Of a stretch of 64,000 nt of DNA, positions 7,614 to 51,200 are shown piece after piece; position 1 is the stretch's first letter; each line of letters begins with the position of its first letter. This DNA is from an uncultured bacterium (GTDB taxonomy: Bacteria; Fidelibacterota; Marinisomatia; Marinisomatales; UBA1611), in the NCBI GenBank assembly GCA_943788175.1, contig CALSPG010000001.1, positions 96,001-160,000 of the forward strand, given 5' to 3'. A model generated the notes under the pieces. The model saw nothing but the letters and a program-made list of their open reading frames with translations, was not told where the DNA came from and searched no databases. Position numbers and translations under genes: made by a program.

Positions 7614-8652
7614 AAAAGTTAATTTTTTATTAATAGTTCTATTGTTGTTCTCATGCATGGAACCAAATGATGAGGGTCTTTGGTCTGTTGATCAAATAAG
7701 TGTTTTTAATACCCAAGGATTCTGTAGAGGCGTTTCTGTCGAAGAAAATATAGCCTATATTGCCTCTGGGCAAGCTGGGGTCCAAGTTTGGAATTTAGAA
7801 ACTGGAGACGCATTGCATGAATATTTGGGTTATTCACAAGATGGCTCTTACATTGAATTTGATGATATATCAATTGTAAAAAGAGATGGAGCTAATAATT
7901 TAATATTCGTTACTGAATCAAATAAAAAAGTAAAAGTTTTCTTTTTTGATGATAGTAGTGATTTTGTTTATAGGAACGAAATCATGAGTGATCGCACAAA
8001 AGACTATGTTTCATTTCCAACTGCTGGAGGTGGTTTTACTATGTATGTTGCTGATAATGATGATGGTCTCAAATGGGGAACATATAGGTCAGATACTACA
8101 ACCATATTCAATCTTGAGATAATAAATTGGATGCCAACTGCTGGTGGAGAAATTTCTACGGATGGAAAGCCGTTAGGCATCGATAGTAATGGTGAAAATT
8201 TAGTAGCTATGGCGGTAGATCAGTTAGGTGTAGAATTTTACAATCTTATTTTTAACCAATCTATTGAAAATGCTGGAGGGGAACCTGTTTTTCTTTCCAG
8301 GTTTGACTTAGGTGGTAATGCAGAACAAGTAAAATTAGTCGATAACGGAGCATATATATCAGTAGATGATTTCGGAGCATATTTTATAGAAAAAGAGTCA
8401 ATTTTATCTGGTGATGGTGAAGCTATTCATTTTGCAGAAGGCCTCACGGTTGATCACATTTCTATCAAAGATGATATAGCAGTATTAAGCATTGGATCTA
8501 AAGGTATTGCTCTTTATGATATTTCTGATATCCATAATCCTAAAGCAAAAGGAATTTTTGATGTTGGTTACACATACAAAACTGAATTCTGGGATGAATA
8601 CATTTTAATTTGTACTAGATCAGGTTTAAAAACTGCAAAAATAAATATTTAA
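7600..8652 (+). CDS. Lipoprotein with LVIVD-like beta-propeller repeats
   Basis: Lipobox LLFSC. Repeats such as IAYIASGQAGVQVWNL and IAVLSIGSKGIALYDISDIHNP. Confidence 0.7.
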   Translation: MIIIKKVNFLLIVLLLFSCMEPNDEGLWSVDQISVFNTQGFCRGVSVEENIAYIASGQAGVQVWNLETGDALHEYLGYSQDGSYIEFDDISIVKRDGANNLIFVTESNKKVKVFFFDDSSDFVYRNEIMSDRTKDYVSFPTAGGGFTMYVADNDDGLKWGTYRSDTTTIFNLEIINWMPTAGGEISTDGKPLGIDSNGENLVAMAVDQLGVEFYNLIFNQSIENAGGEPVFLSRFDLGGNAEQVKLVDNGAYISVDDFGAYFIEKESILSGDGEAIHFAEGLTVDHISIKDDIAVLSIGSKGIALYDISDIHNPKAKGIFDVGYTYKTEFWDEYILICTRSGLKTAKINI

Positions 8653-8677
8653 CATTTCAACGGAGATTAACAAATCA

Positions 8678-11600
8678 ATGAAGATTCGAGTTTTATTATT
8701 TTTTCTTACAATTTTTTCTTTGAGAGCTGAACAATTCACTTTCGATAATGCATCTCCAATTAGGCAAGGTGTTCATGTCGAATGGTATCGAACAGTCGTT
8801 CCCTCTCTCAATGGCTCTGCCATTTTCGTGTGGTCAGATACTCGATTTGGTATGCGCAATGTATTTGCTCACAAAATAGATAAAAATGGAAACCTATTGT
8901 GGGGTGAGGCAGGGACAGTTGTTACGAATTTACCTGGGAGGCAGGAAGACCCTGTATCAATTGAAGACGGCAATGGTGGCGCGTTCATTGCTTGGGTTGA
9001 CTATAGATTTGATGACGCTGGCGATATTTTTATCCAGCATGTAAACAATGATGGTTCAATATTGATGGATCCTAATGGAGTGGCATTAGCTCAGTTTCAA
9101 GGTCAGCAGATTTCCATAAACATGTGCACAGATAGTCTTGGTGGCGTTTTTGTAACTTGGCAAGATAAACGCGGAGGCGTTGATGATGATATCTATGGTA
9201 CTCACGTTGATAGCAATTATAATATCATTGAACCCGGAATAGGTGTTCCTATTGTAGTGCAGGGTGGAACTCAATCAGCCAAAAGCATTGAGTATGCAGG
9301 AAACAATGAGGCTTTTATTTGTTGGTCAGATTCTAGGCAAGGTGAAAATATTGATATTTACGGACAAAGATTAGATATGACTATGTCACCACTGTTTCAA
9401 GAAGATGGTATTCCTATTGCTAGTACTTCCGGGTTGGAAACTAGGCCACGTACAACCTTTGTAAATAATACAACTTCAATTGTGACTTGGAAGTTTGGCG
9501 ATGAAAATGGCAGAATATTATTTCAGTTTGTTGACCAAAATGGACTTGTTTTTACTAACTCAAAACCTGTTTCTGAGTATGATGCTATTCAAACTGGGCC
9601 AAGGCTAAAAAGAGGTAGTCAGGGCGACGTATTTTTGTCTTGGAAAGATTTACGTTTTGATCCTGTAGATGGTGATATTTTTATGCAAAAAATTAATGAA
9701 GATGGTGATGTGGAATGGGGCGATGGTATTCAGGTTGATTTAACAGACGGTGTTAATTTTAGCGGAAGATTTTCTGCAAATAATGTTGGCGGATTTGATA
9801 TATTTTGGGAGAAAGGTGTTTTTCCAAATGTTGATATCTTGTTTCAAAGTTTTAACTCGAACGGTCAGCCTCAGAGTGATATGCCAATTATTGTTACTAG
9901 TGATGAGGGTTACCAGTTCGCGCCCAATATCATTAGTGGTTCAAGTGATAGTGTATTTGTAGTTTATGCTGATCAAGGAAATGGTAGCATAGATTTAAAA
10001 GTTAATTACTACAAAGGTGTCAATTCGCTTTTCGAAACTGGTGGATTGCTTGCCGTTAAAGGGTTAGATGGTGATATTAAATATAATGTTGGATACCCAA
10101 TTGATGATGAAAAAATAGTTTTAGTTTGGGAAGATAATAGAGCAAGTAAGAAAATTTATGCAAATGTCATTAGCGCAGGAGAATTATCGCACTTAAATGG
10201 AAAACAACTCTCATTTTCTGACAACTCTTCAACTGAAATTGATTTGTCCAGTCCGTTTATGATAAACGCATCTAATTATGTTTATACTGCAACCTTCGAT
10301 GCCACCGGAACACCGAAAAAGATTAGAATAAATAAATTAAATGCTAACCTGGAAAATGTTTGGGATCAAAGTGGCGTTTCCCTCAATCCTGAGAATGATC
10401 AACGGAACGCTCATTTGGTAGATCTCGGGATGCAGGGCGTTGGTGTTTTTTGGTCAGAGAGTAGATCTTTTTTAAGTGGTTTTGATATATTTTTTCAATC
10501 GCTAAATAATAATGGAGAAAGTCAGCTGAATGCCGGGGGTATTGCCGTAGCAGAGTCAAATGGAGATGATTATATCCAAAGTATACTGCCAACGCCTGAT
10601 GGAAATTTTCTTATTTTTTGGGTAGAAGAAGTTTGGCCAGCATCAAGATTAAAGTATACTAAAGTAGATGCAGGTGGGTCTACATCTATTGGTTGGCCTC
10701 CAAATGGCTATAGTCTTAGTAATCAAACTATAGGGGCAAATAACTTATCTGTTAAATCAATATCTGAAACCAGCGGTGTGCTTGCAGTTTGGAATCAAGA
10801 GGGGAATTTTAGTGATATTTATGCCCAAAAAATTAATTGGAATGGTCAAACAGAATGGGACGATAACGGTGTGGCAATAAGTATAGAGGACAATGATCAA
10901 TCTGCGATATCTTTTGATATTGATCAACCAGGTCAAACAGCATTTATTGTATGGGAGGATTATCGTAATGGTACTGATTATAACGTTGTTGGTAGAGAGT
11001 TAAACCTTGTTTCAGGTGCTATGAATCAAATCGATGTCTTTTTTACATCTGATACAACCAACCAACAAAAGCCGCTGGTGAAATCAGTTGCGGCAGGAGA
11101 ATATATTATTGTCTGGGAGGATGGTAGAGGATATTACAATGATGACCCGCTTTTAATAAATGGTGTTGATCTTTATGGTTCAGCGTATGTTGTTGGCTCT
11201 GGAAGAACAACAGGTATAGATGGCATTCCAATATCTGTTGAATATCATGGTCAAAAAAATCCTAGGATTACTAAATATAGTGGCGAAGACTATCTTCTTC
11301 ATTGGATTGATCTTAGAAGTTCAGGGAAGGAGGACCTTGCTAATTATTATGCTAAAATTATTAGAAGGACAGGTATTCTCAGCTCTAAAAATGAAGAATT
11401 TGATATAAATATTCCAAATAGTTTTGAGATTCAATCTGTATACCCAAATCCATTTAATGGTAAAGTTAAATTTGATTTTACCATCGACACTCCTCAATTA
11501 GTGACATTCAATGTCTATGACATTACTGGGAAAATGATTGTTGATGAATTAATAATAGGCGGTGCAAGAGGTTATCATCAAATTTCTTGGGATGGAAAAA

Positions 11601-43606: not shown

Positions 43607-44863
43607 GTGATTTCAGTTAAGGAAAAAAAAAGGTTAAGTAAGCTTTCTAAATTATTATACATAGCTAGTAAAAAAATAAAAATATTGAGGCACATAGCCT
43701 GGCCTTTAGAAGTTAAAAACAAGTTCTTTAAAGAAAGTTGTCAAAAACTTCCTGTTCATACTTATCCCTTACATGATGATTCTGAATTAAAACTTATACT
43801 AAATGAAACAGATAAATATTTTGGTGATACTTTATATGACTCTTGGTTAAAAACAAAAGCTAAAGAAATTAAAAAAAATTCTGCATTACTAAAAGCATGT
43901 GGTACTAAAGAATTTTTTAATATCTCCTCTGATATATATGGATTACCATCAACCCCAATCCATGACAATGTTACAAAACCAATTAATCTTTCTAATCAGT
44001 TTGAAAATATAATTGGTGCCATTAAAAATAGTAAAATCAAATTAAAACCAAGCCCTTCTTTAAGTTCAAGTCAGGTTGCGAAAAAAATAGATGATAAAGT
44101 AAAATTGTACTTTAATGAACATGCACCTCAGGTTAAATTAGTCAAAAACCTGTCAGCGAAAGCGACAGCAACCTCAAAATACATTAGAATTCGCGAAGGT
44201 AGTGAGTTTGATCAAGCAGATATTAATCAACTCTTAAATCATGAAGCATATATACATGTTGCGACCACTATAAACGGTAGAAAACAGAACAATATGAAAA
44301 TTTTAGGCGCGAATTATGGCTCTGTTACTAAAACTCAGGAAGGTTTAGCCGTTTTTTCTGAGTTCATATCTGGTTCAATTGATGTTGATAGACTTAAACG
44401 AATTTCAGACCGTACAATAGCAATCCAGATGGCCATTGAGGGTGCAGATTTTATTGATGTCTATAATTATTTCATAAAAGAAGGAGTATCAATGGACCAA
44501 GCTTTTGAAAACAGTAGAAGAGTTTTCAGAGGAGGTCTCCTAGCCGGTGGTGCTCCATTTACAAAAGATTTAGTTTATTTAGATGGTTTCATCAGAGTAT
44601 TCAACTTTCTTCGAAGCGCTATCTCATTAGGGAAAATTGAATGTATTGAACTTTTATTCTCGGGAAAAATGGATTTAGATGATATGCCAGTAATATATGG
44701 TCTATACAAGGATGGTCTTATTCGTAAACCTGATTTTATTCCACCTTGGGCAAATAACTTGAATTATCTTATTTGCTTTTTTTCTGTTTCAATGTTTATA
44801 GAAGATATTAATTATAGTAATGTTTCTAAACATTATGATTTATTACTTAATAGTATTAATTAA
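43607..44863 (+). CDS. DUF1704 / QEGLA-motif metallopeptidase (MATCAP-like)
   Basis: HEAYIH (HExxxH), TQEGLAVFSE, RVFRGG and FTKDLVYLDG motifs. Confidence 0.88.
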   Translation: MISVKEKKRLSKLSKLLYIASKKIKILRHIAWPLEVKNKFFKESCQKLPVHTYPLHDDSELKLILNETDKYFGDTLYDSWLKTKAKEIKKNSALLKACGTKEFFNISSDIYGLPSTPIHDNVTKPINLSNQFENIIGAIKNSKIKLKPSPSLSSSQVAKKIDDKVKLYFNEHAPQVKLVKNLSAKATATSKYIRIREGSEFDQADINQLLNHEAYIHVATTINGRKQNNMKILGANYGSVTKTQEGLAVFSEFISGSIDVDRLKRISDRTIAIQMAIEGADFIDVYNYFIKEGVSMDQAFENSRRVFRGGLLAGGAPFTKDLVYLDGFIRVFNFLRSAISLGKIECIELLFSGKMDLDDMPVIYGLYKDGLIRKPDFIPPWANNLNYLICFFSVSMFIEDINYSNVSKHYDLLLNSIN

Positions 44864-46714
44864 ATTATTTCTTTTATTTTTTCTATCATTTTTTGAAACT
44901 CTTGTTCATCAAATAATCTTGTTAAGAAAACTATTTTTCCATTTTTATCAATCACTACATTTCTAGTAATTCCAGCATTTACGTGCGCAAATTTTGAAAA
45001 GTGTTTCGCACCCGGGTCTAAAGCAATTGGGTATGTAATACCTGTCTTTCTCTTGAAAGCTTTCACGACTTCGATAGGTTCATCTCGATCTATACCTATC
45101 AAAACGAAGTCATCGTTTTTAAATTTTTGCCAGACGTCATTCTCGAGGTGAGGCATCTCTCTAATACATACAGAACACCAGCTAGCTGTAAACTGAAGTA
45201 CGACTACCTTTCCAAGGTAGTCAGATAGTTGTACATTTGTATCATTGATTAAGTCTAAAGATAAATCAGGAGCGGTATCTCCAATTGAGACAATATAACC
45301 TCTTTCATCGTATCCATTTCTGTTAATTGCCCTTTTAAAAGCTAAACTTCCATTTCTTAGTTTTCTTATTTGAGTATTAAAATCAACTTCGTAAAGGCCA
45401 AACTTCATGGAGTACCCTTCCGCCCATTCAAAATTATCCATCAATGACCAATAAAAATAACCTTGAATATCCATTCCATCATCTATAGACTTGTTTAAAG
45501 CATATAAATATCTATTAATAAAAGTTTCTCGTCGATCATCTTTATCATCAGCTATTCCATTTTCAGTTACTATAATGGGTATGTTAAGCTTACTTATATC
45601 ATTCAAAGCTTTATAAAAACCTTCAGGGTAGATTGAATATGGCATATCTGTTTGGATATCTTGCTTTCTTTTTTCGAAGGTAAATGGAGACGTTGGACTT
45701 AGGTGTCCTTTAACATGCCACCTAGAATAATAGTTTAAGCCTATAAAGTCTGCTGAACCAATAGCATTTGAATTTGAATCTGATATGTTTACCATTCCCG
45801 GTAAATAAAAATTAAACTTTCCATTTAAAAATAAATCAATCGTACTATTAGTAAAAATATCATTCAAAATTTTACTAAAATACCAATCAAGTAAATGCCA
45901 TCTTCTTAAAGGGTCAAATTGAGTAATGTTTTTAACCAAACCTATCTGAGCAATCTCACCATTTTCTAGCCCTTTTAAATGATGAAATGCCTTTATATGA
46001 GTAAATAATAAATTTCGCATCACAATTCCAGCGAGTTTTGGATCTTTTTTCCCCGGAGGGAAAACACCATAGAAATAACCTTGAGAGACGTAGACGGCAG
46101 GTTCATTAATTGTGCACCAGTATTTAACAATATCTGATAAATGATTAAAAACAATTTCAGAAAATTCAATAAAATGATCGATGTTTTCTTCTTTTTCAAA
46201 CCCACCTAGTTTTTCAAACCATATTGGGTTTGTGAAGTGATGCAAAGTAACAACAGGAGTTAGCCCAGAATCAATTAGTGCTATACATACATCACGATAG
46301 TGATCTAATGCATTTTCATCAATTAATCCTTCTTTTGGTACTATTTTACTCCATTCAACGGAAAACCTATATGCATTTACTCCTAGTTCTTTCATTAAAG
46401 AAATATCATCTCTGTACATATCCCAATGGTTGGCTGCCTCGCCAGATTTATCATTGTTATGTATATTAGATTTGCCGTTTTGGTTTAAACTATTTTCCCA
46501 TTCATACCAGTTGTTATTTGTATTGTTTCCTTCGACTTGGTGGGCTGCAGTAGATGTTCCCCATATGAAGTTTTCAGGAAAAAACATTTTTTCTGTATTT
46601 ATTTTATCCCAGTTCCATTGTTGGTCAGGGTGTTTTATATTGAGGTAACCTATTATAGTAAACCAAACAATTAGTGGACAGTATGATGAACTTAATGAAT
46701 GATTTAGAAATCAA
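44860..46714 (-). CDS. Glycoside hydrolase family 1 fused to a C-terminal TlpA/AhpC-TSA thioredoxin-like domain; probable N-terminal membrane anchor with a one-base indel near 46677
   Basis: [32 protein letters not shown] and WSLMDNFEW motifs, then GDTAPD...[15 protein letters not shown]. The frame stays open upstream of the 46587 ATG through a hydrophobic [11 protein letters not shown] stretch. A TTG at 46714 overlaps the upstream gene's TGA. Confidence 0.88.
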
Positions 46715-47664
46715 ATATTAAATCCTTTTTCTTTCATCCAATCATCATTTGGAAACTTTGTCATATAGTTACGAATGCCATCTGCTAGAACAACAAGGCA
46801 ATTTTGTCCTTTTTTAAGATTGGAAGCTGCTTGCAATGCTGCAACCATAGTTGCCCCACAAGAACCGCCACAGAGTAGTCCTTCTTCTTTTATAATTCTT
46901 CTGGCCATAATGAAAGATTCTTCATCTTTTGTTTTTATGTATCGATCTACTAAACTATTATCTAAAACATCTGGAAAAAAATCATAACCTATGCCTTCGA
47001 CTAAATAAGAACTAATTTCATCTCCACCGCCTAAAATAGAACCTTCTGGATCAGCACCAACAATTGATATATGAGGTATCTTTTCTTTTAACCTTTTTGC
47101 TACGCCTGTTATAGTTCCGCCTGTTCCTACAGACATAACTACCATATCAAGATTATCAGAAAAGTCTTTAATAATTTCTTCAGCAGTACCATAATAATGT
47201 GCATCAGGGTTTGCCGGGTTAGAATATTGATCTAAAATGTGAGAATTCTCCAATTCGCTATTAAGCTTTTTCGCAACTGAAATATGACTTTCAGGGTCAC
47301 TTGATAAAGCTTCAGTTGGTGTTCGAACAATTTTTGCACCTAATGCCTCAATAGCAATTTGTTTTTCTTGACTCATTTTTTCTGGCATGATAATAATACA
47401 TTTATATCCTTTTACAGCAGCAGCAAGAGCAATTCCTTGGCCAGTATTTCCAGAAGTAGGCTCAATTAAAGTATCTCCAGGCTTAATTCTGCCAGACTTT
47501 TCGGCTTCTTCAACCATATTCCATCCTATTCTGTCCTTAATAGAACCACCGGGGTTAAAAAACTCACATTTAGCATATACGTTGCAGTCTAGATTTTTCG
47601 CAATTTTATTTATTTTCACTATTGGAGTGTCTCCAATAGTGCTCAAAACATTATCATGTATCAT
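46711..47664 (-). CDS. Cystathionine beta-synthase-like PLP enzyme (catalytic core only)
   Basis: [36 protein letters not shown] and RNYMTKF motifs. Confidence 0.9.
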
Positions 47665-47759
47665 TTATTTATATTATTTGGTTAAAAATTTGTTCTATAT
47701 TAGTTAATACTCTTCACAATATAAATGTCTTCTTTCTAAAATTATACAACCAAACTATT

Positions 47760-49235
47760 ATGGTTAATCAATCGCATAAACTTAGTGGCCCATTTTTAAT
47801 AGAGCTAAAAAATAAATTTCGAGAAATAGCTGGGTCAGATAATAAAATTGATAGATTAGAGTTTAAAGATAGTCTAGTAATTGAAAACGAAAATATTATT
47901 AATCGCATATTTGATATTTTTGATAAAGATGAAAATAATCTTTTAGATATAAATGAATTTATTAATGGTATTGAAACTTTAATTAAAAGCACTAATGCTC
48001 AAAAAATAAAATTTGCTTTTGATATACATGACTTTGATGGAAGCGGAGATATCGATAAAGATGAATTAAAAATATTGATAAAAAACATTCTTATTGAAAA
48101 CAACTTAGATTTTGATACAAATCAAGTTGATTTGATTGTTGATGAATTTTTTAGGTATGGGGATATTGATAAGAATGGAAGAATTGATTTTAATGAGTTT
48201 TTAAACTTAATAAAAAAATATCCTGATTTAATAAATAGTCTAGCTGCTAACCCTGTAGCATGGTTTAGAAGTAATAAGTCAAGGAAAGATTATGAAACTA
48301 CTAAGAAGGTTGTTTCAAAAATTAGTAGGGTACAAGTTCAAAATTTAAATGTATTGCAATGGCTCTTAGTCCCAAGGTTGATATATTTTTATAATATTAT
48401 TATAAATCGAAATAAGAACAATGAATTGATTTCTATTAAATCTTTAAAAATTTTACCCGAAAAAAATATATCGTTTTCATTTAATAAACCTAGCTGGTTT
48501 AAGTTTCAAGCAGGTGATTATGTATATATAAATTGTCCCTGGGTTTCAAGTTTGCAGTGGTATCCTTTTAATATAATAAGCTCTACGAATGATAATTCAG
48601 TACTGTTAAATATTAAGGCAGAAGGGGCGTGGCCCCAAAAAATATATAATAAAACATTATCTATGTTGAGTAATAAAAATGTTGAAAATCTGAAAATAAG
48701 AATTGACGGCCCATTTGGATCATCGAGTGATAGAATTTTACAATCTGAAAATTTAATAATTATTGCAGAAGATATGGGCGTGGCAAAATTTGCATCTGTT
48801 CTTCAAGATATCTATCATAGAACAAAATCAAATCAAATTCATTCTAGAGTAAAAACTCTTAATTTTATTTGGCTTTGTAGTGAAGGTAATTATTTTGAAT
48901 GGTTTAAAAAAATGCTTCAAGAATTAGATAAGAGTTTTAATATAGACAACTTTAATTATAGTATTTATTTTTTGAATAGAAATGCATCCGATTTGCCAAG
49001 AGACATGCTCTACGTCTCTAAGGATGTTTTTAAAAAAGAATTTAAAATTAATCTATTACCCGGTCTTAAAAACAAATATCATATCGGTACTCCGTCATTA
49101 CAAAAAAAATTATCTGATATTATTTCAGAGCAAGGTAATGGAAAGTTTGATTTGTTTTTTGCAGGATCTAGAAAAATAAAGACAAAAATAAAATCTGCTT
49201 GTAAAGAATTAGGTATAAACTTTAATAATAGTTAA
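47760..49235 (+). CDS. NOX5-like protein: four EF-hands joined to a NOX dehydrogenase domain, lacking the heme transmembrane domain
   Basis: EF loops AGSDNKIDRLEF, DKDENNLLDINEF, DFDGSGDIDKDEL and DIDKNGRIDFNEF. Dehydrogenase motifs AGDYVYINCP.VS.LQWYPF, IDGPFG, FASVL and FIWLC....FEWF. Confidence 0.85.
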   Translation: MVNQSHKLSGPFLIELKNKFREIAGSDNKIDRLEFKDSLVIENENIINRIFDIFDKDENNLLDINEFINGIETLIKSTNAQKIKFAFDIHDFDGSGDIDKDELKILIKNILIENNLDFDTNQVDLIVDEFFRYGDIDKNGRIDFNEFLNLIKKYPDLINSLAANPVAWFRSNKSRKDYETTKKVVSKISRVQVQNLNVLQWLLVPRLIYFYNIIINRNKNNELISIKSLKILPEKNISFSFNKPSWFKFQAGDYVYINCPWVSSLQWYPFNIISSTNDNSVLLNIKAEGAWPQKIYNKTLSMLSNKNVENLKIRIDGPFGSSSDRILQSENLIIIAEDMGVAKFASVLQDIYHRTKSNQIHSRVKTLNFIWLCSEGNYFEWFKKMLQELDKSFNIDNFNYSIYFLNRNASDLPRDMLYVSKDVFKKEFKINLLPGLKNKYHIGTPSLQKKLSDIISEQGNGKFDLFFAGSRKIKTKIKSACKELGINFNNS

Positions 49236-49246
49236 TAGTATAATTT

Positions 49247-49284
49247 ATAATTGGGAGGAGAGTTTATTCTCTCCTCCCAATTAT
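49247..49284. terminator. Bidirectional intrinsic terminator between convergent genes
   Basis: Perfect 16-bp inverted repeat ATAATTGGGAGGAGAG-tttatt-CTCTCCTCCCAATTAT with AT-rich flanks, lying between the two stop codons. Confidence 0.85.
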
Positions 49285-49292
49285 TTAATAGA

Positions 49293-49730
49293 TTATTTAA
49301 TTGATATTAATCTATTATTTGGTTTTTCTTCTTCTGCTTTAGGTATTGTAATAATAAGAGTCCCATCTTTAAAATTTGCTGATATCTTATCTTCTATTAT
49401 CGATTGTGGCAGTTTAAAAGATCTAGCGAATTTCCCAACTTTACGCTCACTGTAATGATAGTCATCGTTATCCTCTTCGTTATCTAGCTTTTTATCCCCT
49501 TTAATTATGAGAATATTTTCTTCTACCTTAGCCTCAATATTACTTTTTTTAACTCCCGGCATATCTGCAACTAAAATATATGATTTGCTATTCTCTTTTA
49601 TGTCTACTAATGGTTGCCATTCATTGTTATAAACCTCCTTGTCGTTTACATTATAGGTCGCATTATCTAATATATTTGGCATTCTATTTAAAAATGATAC
49701 TGGTTTATATCTCCAATTAACTATGTTCAT
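49293..49730 (-). CDS. Hsp20/alpha-crystallin small heat-shock protein
   Basis: PLVDIKE, ADMPGV, ER..GKFARSFKLP and A.FKDGTL.ITIPK motifs; GGAG RBS upstream. Confidence 0.97.
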   Translation of the reverse strand: MNIVNWRYKPVSFLNRMPNILDNATYNVNDKEVYNNEWQPLVDIKENSKSYILVADMPGVKKSNIEAKVEENILIIKGDKKLDNEEDNDDYHYSERKVGKFARSFKLPQSIIEDKISANFKDGTLIITIPKAEEEKPNNRLISIK

Positions 49731-49773
49731 TTTAGTCTCCTTTGATTGATTATGTTTATATTATCTTTTTAAT

Positions 49774-49790
49774 TGCAATCTACATGCCAA
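49774..49790 (-). promoter_or_regulatory. Sigma-54 (-24/-12) promoter for hsp20
   Basis: The minus strand reads TTGGCATGTAGATTGCA, with exact GG-N10-GC spacing, about 45 nt upstream of the hsp20 ATG. Confidence 0.72.
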
Positions 49791-49952
49791 TACAAATTGT
49801 TATCTTTATTAGTTATTTTTTATGACAAATTGTCTTATAATTAATTTTTTTACATTTTTAACATGACATTATTGCATTAAAGTGGCTAAAATGAATCTTC
49901 TGATTGCATTGTGGAGTCGAATAGTAGTTTGTAAATTATGTATATATAATTA

Positions 49953-51200
49953 ATGAAAGTTTACAAAGTGAATGAATTAGCAATTTTTGGTGGAAATCCT
50001 ATAAGAAAGGAATCTTTTCCTGTTTGGCCGCGAGTTACTCCTGAGATGAAAGATAGCCTAATCGATACTTTTGAAAACCAATCATGGGGTGTTGGCAGTG
50101 AAACTATAGATCTCTTCAATGCCGAGTTTGCAAAAATGCAAGATGCTAAATTCGCATTGTCAATTCATTCTGGGACATCTGCAATTTGGATATGCTTGAA
50201 AGCTGCTGGTATTGAAGCTGGTGATGAAGTCATTCTTCCATCATACACTTTTATCGCTACCGCTACAGCAGTGGTTTTAGCGAATGCTGTTCCTGTTTTC
50301 GCAGATATTGATTTAGAAACTGGAAACATAAATCCTGTTTCTGTTCAAAGTTTAATAACGAGTAAAACCAAGGCAATTATTCCAGTTCATACTGGGGGAT
50401 CTCCAGCTGACTTAGTTAGTCTTATTGATATATCTAAAAAACATAATATTCCAATAATTGAAGATGCTGCGCAGGCGCATGGATCTATGCTAAATGGTAA
50501 TAAAGTGGGTGCTATAGGTCTAGGCGGAATATTTAGTTTTCAAACGTCTAAAAATATGAGTGCTGGTGAGGGTGGGGCAATCGTTAGTAATGATGAGTCA
50601 TTTATTGATGCATGCTTTTCTTATCATAATTGCGGGCGAGTTAGAAATGGTAAATGGTATGAACATTATCGAATGGGAAGTAATTTACGGATGAGTGCTC
50701 TAAACGCTGCGATTCTATTACCACAAATAAAATCTATGGATCGAGATTTTCTGCTCAGAGAAAGAAGTCGTAAAATAATAGATGATGGCATTGATAATAT
50801 TGATGGGTTAGTGCCCTTAAAACAGATTCAAGGGACTAAATCATCGAACCATATTTATATAATTCGTTATCAAAAAGAAAAATTCCATAACATTTCAAGA
50901 GAAGTCTTTTTCAAAGCTATGCAAGCTGAAGGAGTATACACTTACAAGGGTTGGTCACCGCTATATAAAGAGCCATTGTTTTCTATAAATCCGAAGGAAT
51001 ACCCATGGTTAGAGAATATTGATTATAATAGTTTATTTCATGACAACACGGAAGTGTTCGCTCAAGAGCAAGCTGTCTGGTTGAGGCAAAATCATTTGAT
51101 TGGCACAGATAATGATTTAGAAGATATTATTAATGCTTTTGAAAAAGTGACCACTGAAATGCGTAAAAAACCAGATAGATTTAAAAATATTATTACATAA
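49953..51200 (+). CDS. DegT/DnrJ/EryC1/StrS family PLP aminotransferase
   Basis: SGTSA, GDEVILPSYTF.AT, IEDAAQAHG and FSFQTSKNMSAGEGG motifs. Confidence 0.93.
   Translation: MKVYKVNELAIFGGNPIRKESFPVWPRVTPEMKDSLIDTFENQSWGVGSETIDLFNAEFAKMQDAKFALSIHSGTSAIWICLKAAGIEAGDEVILPSYTFIATATAVVLANAVPVFADIDLETGNINPVSVQSLITSKTKAIIPVHTGGSPADLVSLIDISKKHNIPIIEDAAQAHGSMLNGNKVGAIGLGGIFSFQTSKNMSAGEGGAIVSNDESFIDACFSYHNCGRVRNGKWYEHYRMGSNLRMSALNAAILLPQIKSMDRDFLLRERSRKIIDDGIDNIDGLVPLKQIQGTKSSNHIYIIRYQKEKFHNISREVFFKAMQAEGVYTYKGWSPLYKEPLFSINPKEYPWLENIDYNSLFHDNTEVFAQEQAVWLRQNHLIGTDNDLEDIINAFEKVTTEMRKKPDRFKNIIT

Follow-up and report, generated by a model that had tools for sequence, protein, structure and literature searches.

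Within a 64,000-nucleotide stretch of DNA from an uncultured Marinimicrobia (SAR406) bacterium (contig CALSPG010000001.1, positions 96,001 to 160,000; hereafter, the window), an intact ATG-started open reading frame (ORF) at 47760-49235 on the forward strand encodes 491 amino acids (aa) plus a stop codon. The encoded protein is a NOX5 derivative that retains the EF-hands and the dehydrogenase (DH) domain of this oxidase but lacks its haem-carrying transmembrane (TM) helices; we refer to it as the EF-DH or TM-less protein. Having neither haems nor a membrane span, it cannot perform NOX chemistry. Our data indicate that TM1-TM5 and the two haems were lost once, in the ancestor of one Marinimicrobia family, and that the shortened form has since been kept by purifying selection. 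In the lineage of the window, the features of the protein point to a Ca2+ sensor whose DH domain is vestigial or non-canonical, a reading to which we give a probability of about one half. A NOX5-derived protein with a deleted haem membrane domain, rewired cofactor motifs and an intact frame had been proposed from the DNA letters alone, and profile, PDB, fold and phylogenetic evidence now agree with this original prediction.

The domain composition found by hidden Markov model scans is the one that had been anticipated. EF-hand_7, EF-hand_6 and EF-hand_1 of Pfam were matched above the Pfam cut-offs, with the best stretches within residues 81-153, and were followed by FAD_binding_8 (residues 224-323, E 5.8e-21, 75.1 bits) and NAD_binding_6 (residues 330-481, E 6.1e-15, 56.1 bits); Ferric_reduct (PF01794) was absent from the 491-aa protein in the Pfam scan even at E<=1. 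Among PDB chains, human NOX5 (6sz5_B) was the top phmmer match (E 1.6e-56) and gave three colinear alignment blocks (residues 17-172 against NOX5 14-169, 197-298 against 372-475, and 304-488 against 510-714), the first of which bears out the predicted colinearity of the N-terminal ~165 aa with the NOX5 EF domain. The DH domain of csNOX5 (5o0x), the NOX5 of Cylindrospermum stagnale, came next (phmmer E 5.8e-44), and the EF part also matched calcineurin B and CBL proteins (E 1e-14 to 1e-18). An AlphaFold2 (AF2) model built from a 22-sequence alignment had a mean predicted local distance difference test (pLDDT) score of 78.3 and a predicted TM-score (pTM) of 0.75. When this model was submitted to Foldseek, it retrieved human NOX5 (E 2.4e-21) and the csNOX5 DH domain (TMt up to 0.87), and the best whole-model TM-score (TMq), 0.58, was obtained with the human NOX5 structure 8U85. 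8U85 heads the four coordinate sets of the source and the pre-reaction state heads its four maps, given in the same order (PMC11088703). A homodimer prediction with two copies scored 0.00, which argues neither for nor against self-association.

47760..49235, + strand: TM-less NOX5 paralogue, whole gene (ORF translation, Pfam, PDB phmmer, AF2 model, Foldseek)

The segment missing from the protein corresponds to the membrane domain. Indeed, NOX5 residues 170-371, about 200 residues including TM1-TM5, remained unmatched in the phmmer alignment with human NOX5. Comparison with a full-length NOX5 of Marinimicrobia (query 16-170 with 8-162, 45% identity; 200-478 with 364-647, 27% identity) revealed that ~201 residues of the latter are replaced by 29 residues in the window protein. 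The zone of replacement has a pLDDT below 50 over residues 171-201 in the AF2 model, and the linker columns of the 22-sequence family alignment are weakly conserved and of varying length. The linker is followed by a hydrophobic segment aligned with residues 372-390 of human NOX5 and with the Marinimicrobia full-length protein from residue 364. A remnant of the last TM helix had thus been correctly recognized upstream of the DH domain, though its distance from the end of the EF/pre-TM1 block is ~30 residues and not ~25 as first estimated.

48270..48350, + strand: variable linker, residues 171-197, predicted disordered, at the place of TM1-TM5
48351..48401, + strand: TM6 remnant helix, residues 198-214, VLQWLLVPRLIYFYNII, hydrophobic, under the TM threshold

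No 19-residue window of the EF-DH protein reaches 1.6, the customary membrane cut-off on the Kyte-Doolittle scale, the maximum being 1.28 at residues 197-215; a full-length relative contains 24 such windows at or above 1.6. For conservation and motif comparisons, we used 35 full-length relatives and 56 TM-less proteins. The WLLVPRLIY motif of the TM6 remnant is near-invariant in the TM-less set and variable in the full-length one. The six-helix, two-haem ferric-reductase TM domain characteristic of NOX5-type oxidases is therefore missing, so that the protein is not a NOX by definition, though it is a NOX5 derivative by ancestry. According to the established NOX mechanism, the canonical superoxide route needs the haems (PMC7317449; PMC11088703). 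Since the haem-carrying membrane domain is lost, the usual superoxide production is impossible for the EF-DH protein.

The regulatory EF-hand domain, on the other hand, is well preserved. We considered as canonical a 12-residue EF loop with Asp, Asn or Ser at positions 1, 3 and 5 and Glu at position 12. By inspection, EF2, EF3 and EF4 are canonical and EF1 is not, in line with the expectation that at least three loops stay near-canonical.

47826..47861, + strand: EF-hand 1 loop, residues 23-34, IAGSDNKIDRLE, non-canonical at positions 1 and 3
47922..47957, + strand: EF-hand 2 loop, residues 55-66, DKDENNLLDINE, canonical, read from sequence
48030..48065, + strand: EF-hand 3 loop, residues 91-102, DFDGSGDIDKDE, canonical; Pfam EF-hand_6 at 83-108
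48162..48197, + strand: EF-hand 4 loop, residues 135-146, DIDKNGRIDFNE, canonical; Pfam EF-hand_1 at 127-153
48219..48269, + strand: pre-TM1 remnant, residues 154-170, YPDLINSLAANPVAWFR, colinear with the NOX5 segment preceding TM1

The EF1 loop of human NOX5, IAGEDGEISLQE, aligns with that of the window protein and is likewise non-canonical. Across the 22 family sequences, the invariant loop residues are D27, D31 and E34 in EF1, D55, D57, D63 and E66 in EF2, D91, D93, G96, I98, D99 and E102 in EF3, and D135, D137, I142 and E146 in EF4, where D143 is nearly invariant. The EF domain is continued by a pre-TM1 remnant, which could be aligned through residue 169 of human NOX5 and residue 162 of the Marinimicrobia full-length protein; its residues N164, P165 and W168 are invariant in the same 22 sequences. 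In human NOX5, the preTM1 helix is reported to cap the NADPH pocket (PMC11088703).

In the DH domain, the fold is retained, whereas most NOX-specific cofactor and regulatory residues are replaced. All five motif changes noticed initially were recovered in comparison with the 35 full-length relatives, namely YPFN, NIKAEGAWP, AEDMGVAKF, GTPSL and FFAGS.

48429..48728, + strand: beta-barrel of the type binding flavin adenine dinucleotide (FAD), residues 224-323 (Pfam FAD_binding_8; csNOX5 DH structures, TMt 0.80-0.87)
48561-48572, + strand: YPFN, residues 268-271, replacing HPFT (motif table)
48747..49202, + strand: NAD-binding-type Rossmann-like subdomain, residues 330-481, strongly remodelled (Pfam NAD_binding_6)
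48765..48788, + strand: degenerate nucleotide loop AEDMGVAK, residues 336-343, replacing GAGIGVTP (motif table)

In the FAD subdomain, the fold and the Pfam domain are present and the HPFT motif reads YPFN. HPFT occurs in 34/35 full-length proteins, whereas YPFN (36) and FPFN (10) prevail among the 56 TM-less ones; its His is found in 35/35 and 3/56, respectively. Changes in the NADPH subdomain are more extensive. The Pro of GxGxxP, present in 35/35 full-length proteins, is found in 0/56 TM-less ones, which carry Lys or Arg instead, and the Cys of CGP drops from 35/35 to 6/56. GRP is seen in 19 of the 26 full-length proteins covered by the eight commonest variants listed, and its Arg in none of the listed TM-less variants. 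A C-terminal Phe terminates all eight commonest full-length endings listed (33/35 proteins), while among TM-less proteins Phe is confined to the deep clade. In the window protein, the four elements of this subdomain (GxGxxP, GRP, CGP and the C-terminal aromatic) read AEDMGVAK, GTP, AGS and NNS, the last being its C-terminal end, devoid of an aromatic residue. Across the TM-less family, the loop passes from GAG through AAG and AEG to AED, the subclade of the window being the furthest changed. Deep-branching members still have a loop of the form GAGxG[IV][ST][KR] and end in Phe or Tyr, and some of them retain the His of HPF.

The same trend is seen at the level of the whole domain. NAD_binding_6 scores 56.1 bits in the window protein versus 121.7 in full-length Marinimicrobia NOX5. 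Full-length proteins share 41 DH positions with a conservation of 90% or more; the TM-less set retains 14 of them, has switched 2 and no longer conserves the other 25; in the NAD subdomain, 16 of 25 such positions are no longer conserved and 1 is switched. Among full-length proteins, DH is more conserved than EF (identities of 53 versus 48%, 45 versus 37% and 53 versus 42%). This order is reversed between TM-less and full-length proteins (DH 26-29%, EF 41-43%), and within the TM-less family identities are 31-33% for DH and 52-54% for EF. In csNOX5, aspartates D611 and D631 of the regulatory EF-hand-binding domain (REFBD) were reported, by mutagenesis, to be required for Ca2+ activation (PMC7317449). 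Neither is conserved among TM-less proteins: the window protein has the first Asp (SDLP), at a position that varies in the family, and Asn in place of the second, which is Asp in fewer than half of the 56. Conversely, several positions are conserved in TM-less proteins only, namely the N-terminal MxNxSxKLxGPFL, N164, P165, WLLVPRLIY, Y256, N258, Q349, D350, Y378, K384 and F404.

Homologues carrying the same deletion, a search for which had been suggested, proved to be numerous. Among 5.8 billion protein clusters, 65 matches were obtained, of which 62 have the architecture of the window protein or are fragments thereof. They include ~60 clusters, mostly of 484-499 aa, that share this architecture down to 38% identity, and PF01794 was detected only in the 3 weakest of the 65. 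In one source, members bear the automatic label 'Ca2+-binding EF-hand superfamily protein/NAD(P)H-flavin reductase'. When 1.84 billion representatives (clustered at 50% identity) were searched with a profile, only two proteins of ~495 aa among the best 150 matches, P0067 and P0069, aligned with it over its full length without interruption; the other strong matches among these 150 were fragments, NOX5-like proteins of 630-690 aa matched in two stretches, and long multi-domain proteins. In contigs from one genome per species, 31 loci encode the EF-DH protein, and 13 of them are labelled Marinimicrobia or Neomarinimicrobiota. Within a 301-genome sample of the phylum, matches were found in 20 of the 24 genomes of the window's family, its own genome left out of the count, and in 1/2 of a second family (f18), and in no other family.

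To evaluate selection, ratios of nonsynonymous to synonymous substitution (dN/dS) were computed by the Nei-Gojobori method (NG86) for three pairs formed by the window gene and two of these loci, L008 and L012, all belonging to the subclade with the most degenerate motifs.

Window versus L008: dN/dS 0.133 (EF 0.070, linker 0.155, FAD 0.079, NAD 0.255)
Window versus L012: dN/dS 0.119 (EF 0.098, linker 0.092, FAD 0.134, NAD 0.132)
L008 versus L012: dN/dS 0.124 (EF 0.096, linker 0.194, FAD 0.158, NAD 0.113)

Since all three sequences belong to the degenerate-motif subclade, this subclade is also under purifying selection. The stretch is present in runs from 9 studies, and DNA contigs of two other studies cover 47300-49744 (X6) and 47300-49592 (X8) with 10 and 6 substitutions, respectively, and no indel. 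Both span 48260-48350 and therefore bridge the suspected junction. These data bear directly on the possibility that the gene is a decaying NOX5 remnant which recently suffered an internal deletion, or was created by a chimeric join near 48260-48350. The subclade of the window does have the most degenerate motifs, and a frameshift divides the EF-DH gene of L031, a single locus out of the 31, into 8001-9086 and 9076-9489 on the + strand. However, the 484-499 aa architecture is kept in ~60 diverged clusters and 31 species-level genomes, dN/dS is 0.12-0.13 in every pair, and the junction is spanned by independent contigs from two studies. Decay and misassembly, both of which the original prediction had put forward as ways in which it could fail, are ruled out by this combination of family, genomes, dN/dS and spanning contigs, and we regard their probability as negligible.

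The phylum search also retrieved full-length NOX5 frames of 662-664 aa in three genomes (G209, G218 and G241) and a copy cut by a contig end in a fourth (G047). The full-length frames match the EF-DH profile at 15-182 and 198-493, with ~186 extra residues in between. Marinimicrobia full-length NOX5 has PF01794 (44.7 bits), WHPFT, HIRxVGSWT, ATGIGVTP, GRP, CGHP and a C-terminal ENF. The initial statement that bacterial NOX5 homologues are best known from cyanobacteria is correct and needs to be completed, as full-length NOX5 exists in Marinimicrobia too. G218 carries both the full-length and the TM-less forms, and genus g2 has the full-length form only, or neither.

L032 3007-4995, - strand; L033 3029-5020, - strand; L034 2967-4958, + strand: full-length Marinimicrobia NOX5 genes

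A phylogenetic tree of 68 proteins was constructed from 492 shared columns, TM columns excluded, by an IQ-TREE quick search, and was rooted on six long NOX-like proteins (703-1046 aa), among them a probable human-type NOX5. The 24 TM-less rows form one clade with a Shimodaira-Hasegawa-like approximate likelihood ratio test (SH-aLRT) support of 100 and a stem length of 1.08. This clade is nested in a 97%-supported group that also contains the full-length proteins of Marinimicrobia and the P0071 group of cyanobacterial type. The nested position, along with the retained pre-TM1 segment (154-170) and TM6 end (198-216), argues for a single loss of TM1-TM5 from a full-length ancestor, and the Marinimicrobia full-length NOX5 is the likely source of the TM-less paralogue.

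In L032 (3007-7539, -), L033 (3029-7559, -) and L034 (428-4958, +), the full-length NOX5 gene ends an apparent operon. It is preceded by two genes for CxxCH-rich multihaem proteins, one of 320 aa (Cytochrome_C554) and the other of ~490-510 aa (Cytochrome_C7, c3, MtrC-like), the stop of the second overlapping or abutting the NOX5 start. Such an organization suggests that, in bacteria, full-length NOX5 may hand its electrons over to cytochromes of the periplasm instead of O2.

How could the EF-DH protein function? We favour, with the even odds given above, a Ca2+ sensor. The cytosolic part of NOX5 remains, composed of the four EF-hands, the segment preceding TM1, the end of TM6 nearest the cytosol and a DH fold of the FAD/NAD type; it cannot carry electrons across the membrane to O2. 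Ca2+ binding would shift docking of the EF domain on the DH-like domain, as in NOX5 (PMC7317449; PMC11088703). The output would no longer be haem reduction. Instead, Ca2+ would alter the DH-like domain and the exposed hydrophobic TM6-remnant helix, and this helix would attach to a partner or to the surface of a membrane. A modified reaction with flavin and NAD(P)H may persist in deep-branching members, given that they keep GAGxG[IV][ST][KR], in some cases the HPF His, and Phe or Tyr at the C-terminus. In the subclade of the window, characterized by AEDMGVAK, AGS and the loss of the C-terminal aromatic, the canonical mode of NAD(P)H binding has probably been lost, and a role as Ca2+ sensor or pseudo-dehydrogenase is the most likely one. 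In NOX2, the substitution Pro415His abolishes NADPH binding. A more specific version, in which a NOX-derived pseudoenzyme has been repurposed as a bacterial Ca2+ transducer through Ca2+-controlled exposure of the TM6 remnant and the N-terminal motif, with redox activity vestigial or absent in the window's lineage, is tentative and, in our opinion, rather doubtful.

Several points weigh against the favoured reading. A pseudoenzyme and an enzyme with an altered pocket look alike at the sequence level. The flavin-facing residues W267, P269, F270 and W291, as well as DGPxG, survive; the FAD_binding_8 score is only slightly lower in the window protein than in its full-length counterpart (75 versus 92 bits); and the central loop Gly, present in 100% of the 35 full-length proteins and replaced by Asp338 in the window protein, is retained in 88% of the 56 TM-less members. 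Since these residues, this score and the central Gly are kept, flavin/NAD(P)H chemistry is plausible for most members, and the window protein itself perhaps keeps it through a non-canonical mode. Some genuine flavin reductases of the ferredoxin-NADP+ reductase (FNR) type, E. coli Fre among them, also lack the loop proline. The helix 198-214, central to the proposed output, is modelled with a low-confidence pLDDT of about 55. Parts of the gene, 48228-48524 and 48117-48349 among them, are covered by contigs from two metatranscriptome-labelled runs of a single study; DNA carry-over being possible in RNA libraries, these contigs do not prove transcription. Finally, derivation by loss would need a root placed off the long TM-less stem, a placement argued from the pre-TM1 and TM6 remnants.

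The chief competing explanation is that the protein is a Ca2+-gated reductase or diaphorase, soluble or peripheral to the membrane, using NAD(P)H and acting on flavin (or a quinone or ferric chelate), its altered motifs reflecting a changed donor or acceptor preference. The DH domain would by itself oxidise NAD(P)H and deliver the electrons to free flavin or some other acceptor. We judge this less probable than a sensor, albeit credible. The isolated DH domain of S. pneumoniae NOX is described as a flavin reductase working with NADPH or NADH and with FAD as co-substrate, and the Pro-Phe pair, (near-)invariant in the family, stacks on the isoalloxazine in SpNOX (PMC11031084). DGPxG, W267 and W291 are kept, the xxGxG of the loop is conserved in most members, and deep-branching ones end with an aromatic residue, like NOX and FNR. 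The protein also gave weak matches to the NCBIfam models NF005963 and NF052252, both far below the cut-offs (30.7 bits versus 340 for LuxG and 25.1 versus 230 for Fre-type). On the other hand, the NADPH-contacting signatures are changed family-wide, with the loop Pro absent from all 56 proteins, the GRP Arg from every listed variant and the CGP Cys from all but six; in the subclade of the window, two acidic residues occupy the place of the pyrophosphate-binding glycines and the C-terminal aromatic is gone. The NAD_binding_6 score is half that of the full-length paralogue, and the His of HPFT is changed to Tyr or Phe in 53/56. In human NOX2, the substitution His338Tyr depletes FAD. Among the 32 sources examined (31 loci and the window), the EF-DH gene is followed, on its own strand, by a short-chain dehydrogenase/reductase (SDR) gene in 8 and by an NADPH-dependent flavin mononucleotide (FMN) reductase gene in 7, as might suit a redox role. 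Since both genes also occupy the locus in genus g2, which is devoid of the EF-DH gene there, this adjacency is weak evidence.

The EF-DH protein could also be half of a split NOX, as the original prediction suggested, docking through its TM6 remnant on a separate haem-b membrane protein in the way E. coli Fre works with MsrQ. The remnant is indeed hydrophobic and more conserved than TM6 of full-length NOX5, and the Fre/MsrQ couple offers a precedent (PMC11031084). However, the stand-alone ferric-reductase TM gene expected in this case was sought and not found: no PF01794 match exists in the window's genome (92.2% complete, 12 contigs), although the same search was positive in 5/14 control genomes. 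A search for the Marinimicrobia NOX5 TM domain, run without a positive control, likewise gave no match in this genome at E<=1. These two domains were the only haem partners sought, other haem folds not being searched, and no membrane-protein gene is present among the conserved neighbours. Since the genome is 92% complete and the TM-domain search had no positive control, these results lower the probability of a split NOX rather than abolish it, and we consider such an arrangement improbable.

With csNOX5 (5O0X for DH, 5O0T for TM) and Marinimicrobia full-length NOX5, the EF-DH protein shares the four EF-hands (41-45% identical), the pre-TM1 segment, the C-terminal end of TM6 and the FAD_binding_8 plus NAD_binding_6 fold, together with DGPxG, the Pro-Phe of HPFT and several Trp and Gly residues. 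It differs from both in that TM1-TM5 with their haem-ligating His give way to a 29-residue disordered linker, HPFT to YPFN, GxGxxP to xxxxGxx[KR] and CGP to SGP or AGS; the GRP Arg is gone, the REFBD aspartates are unconserved, and new N-terminal and TM6-remnant motifs have appeared. Human NOX5 (6SZ5, 8U7Y, 8U85-8U87) has a colinear EF domain with a similarly non-canonical EF1, and the EF/DH arrangement of the model fits 8U85 best, but the TM-less protein has no TM domain or haems and its cofactor motifs are altered. SpNOX-DH and E. coli Fre also represent NOX/FNR-type DH modules without a covalently attached haem domain (PMC11031084); however, in contrast to the natural EF-DH gene, SpNOX-DH is an engineered fragment, and Fre has no EF-hands. 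The four-EF-hand domain recalls calmodulin- and calcineurin-B-like sensors of bacteria and eukaryotes, but that of the window protein is fused to its presumed target and has NOX5 as its closest EF relative.

NOX enzymes are defined by a cytosolic dehydrogenase coupled to a haem membrane domain, and this family constitutes a natural, long-lived NOX5 without the latter. In the literature searched, we came across no account of a TM-less NOX5 and none of NOX5 from this phylum, though supplementary alignments (PMC3591440, PMC9421330) might list such sequences. A survey of the ferric-reductase domain (FRD) superfamily gathered its data around this domain (PMC3591440), and would therefore probably miss TM-less proteins. 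The family offers a natural experiment on which regulatory parts of NOX5 (EF, pre-TM1, TM6 end and DH) work alone, and a candidate case of an oxidase turned sensor or pseudoenzyme. The occurrence of both forms in sister genera and in one genome makes the comparison tractable. To our knowledge, candidates for multi-EF-hand Ca2+-responsive proteins are rather few in bacteria; the EF-DH protein would be one in SAR406, a widespread marine group. If the pseudoenzyme transducer were confirmed, this abundant ocean lineage would possess a dedicated cytosolic Ca2+ sensor.

The EF-DH gene lies in a conserved neighbourhood, with the order GH1-redoxin fusion (-), PALP enzyme (-), EF-DH (+), Hsp20 (-), DegT and TldD/PmbA. 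The PALP gene adjoins the EF-DH gene in 25/32 sources, the other 7 being cut by contig ends, and the GH1-redoxin gene adjoins the PALP gene in 27/32. Since the whole wider region is syntenic housekeeping DNA (KdtA-like, FtsY, radical SAM, MATCAP/DUF1704, GH1-redoxin, PALP, Hsp20, DegT, TldD/PmbA, RmuC and a helicase-nuclease), gene adjacency says little about function. In deep-branching genomes, SDR and FMN reductase genes lie between EF-DH and Hsp20 (L009 3909-4637, +; L006 3668-4192, +). The syntenic site of genus g2 contains PALP, SDR, FMN_red and Hsp20 without an EF-DH gene, with SDR/FMN_red at the same place (L041 496-1404, -; L043 2413-3185, +); the SDR of L043 is apparently truncated to a 92-aa ORF. 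In L027 (8001-11369), the neighbourhood forms an inverted repeat in which PALP and GH1 come after EF-DH on the + strand, suggesting a chimeric assembly.

Some other features of the window can be mentioned. At 44860-46587 (-), a 575-aa protein fuses a GH1 beta-glucosidase-type domain (3-425) with an AhpC/TSA-redoxin domain (435-553), an unusual combination. A 418-aa protein encoded at 43607-44863 (+) carries a full-length MATCAP domain (PF08014, E 1.8e-110) with a QEGLA motif, and there is a 4-nucleotide overlap between its gene and the stop of the convergent GH1-redoxin gene. A scan of 47500-49900 gave 0 terminators and 21 promoter-like sites versus 19.3 expected, which is uninformative; the sequence TTCACA-18-TAAAAT is located at 47713-47742, just 5' of the ATG of the EF-DH gene. 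The G+C content is low (0.27-0.37) throughout the window, the lowest 2-kb bin (0.267) being that at 48001-50000, where Hsp20 and the greater part of the EF-DH gene are located. Over most of the window (1-64000), GC skew is positive, which fits one replichore.

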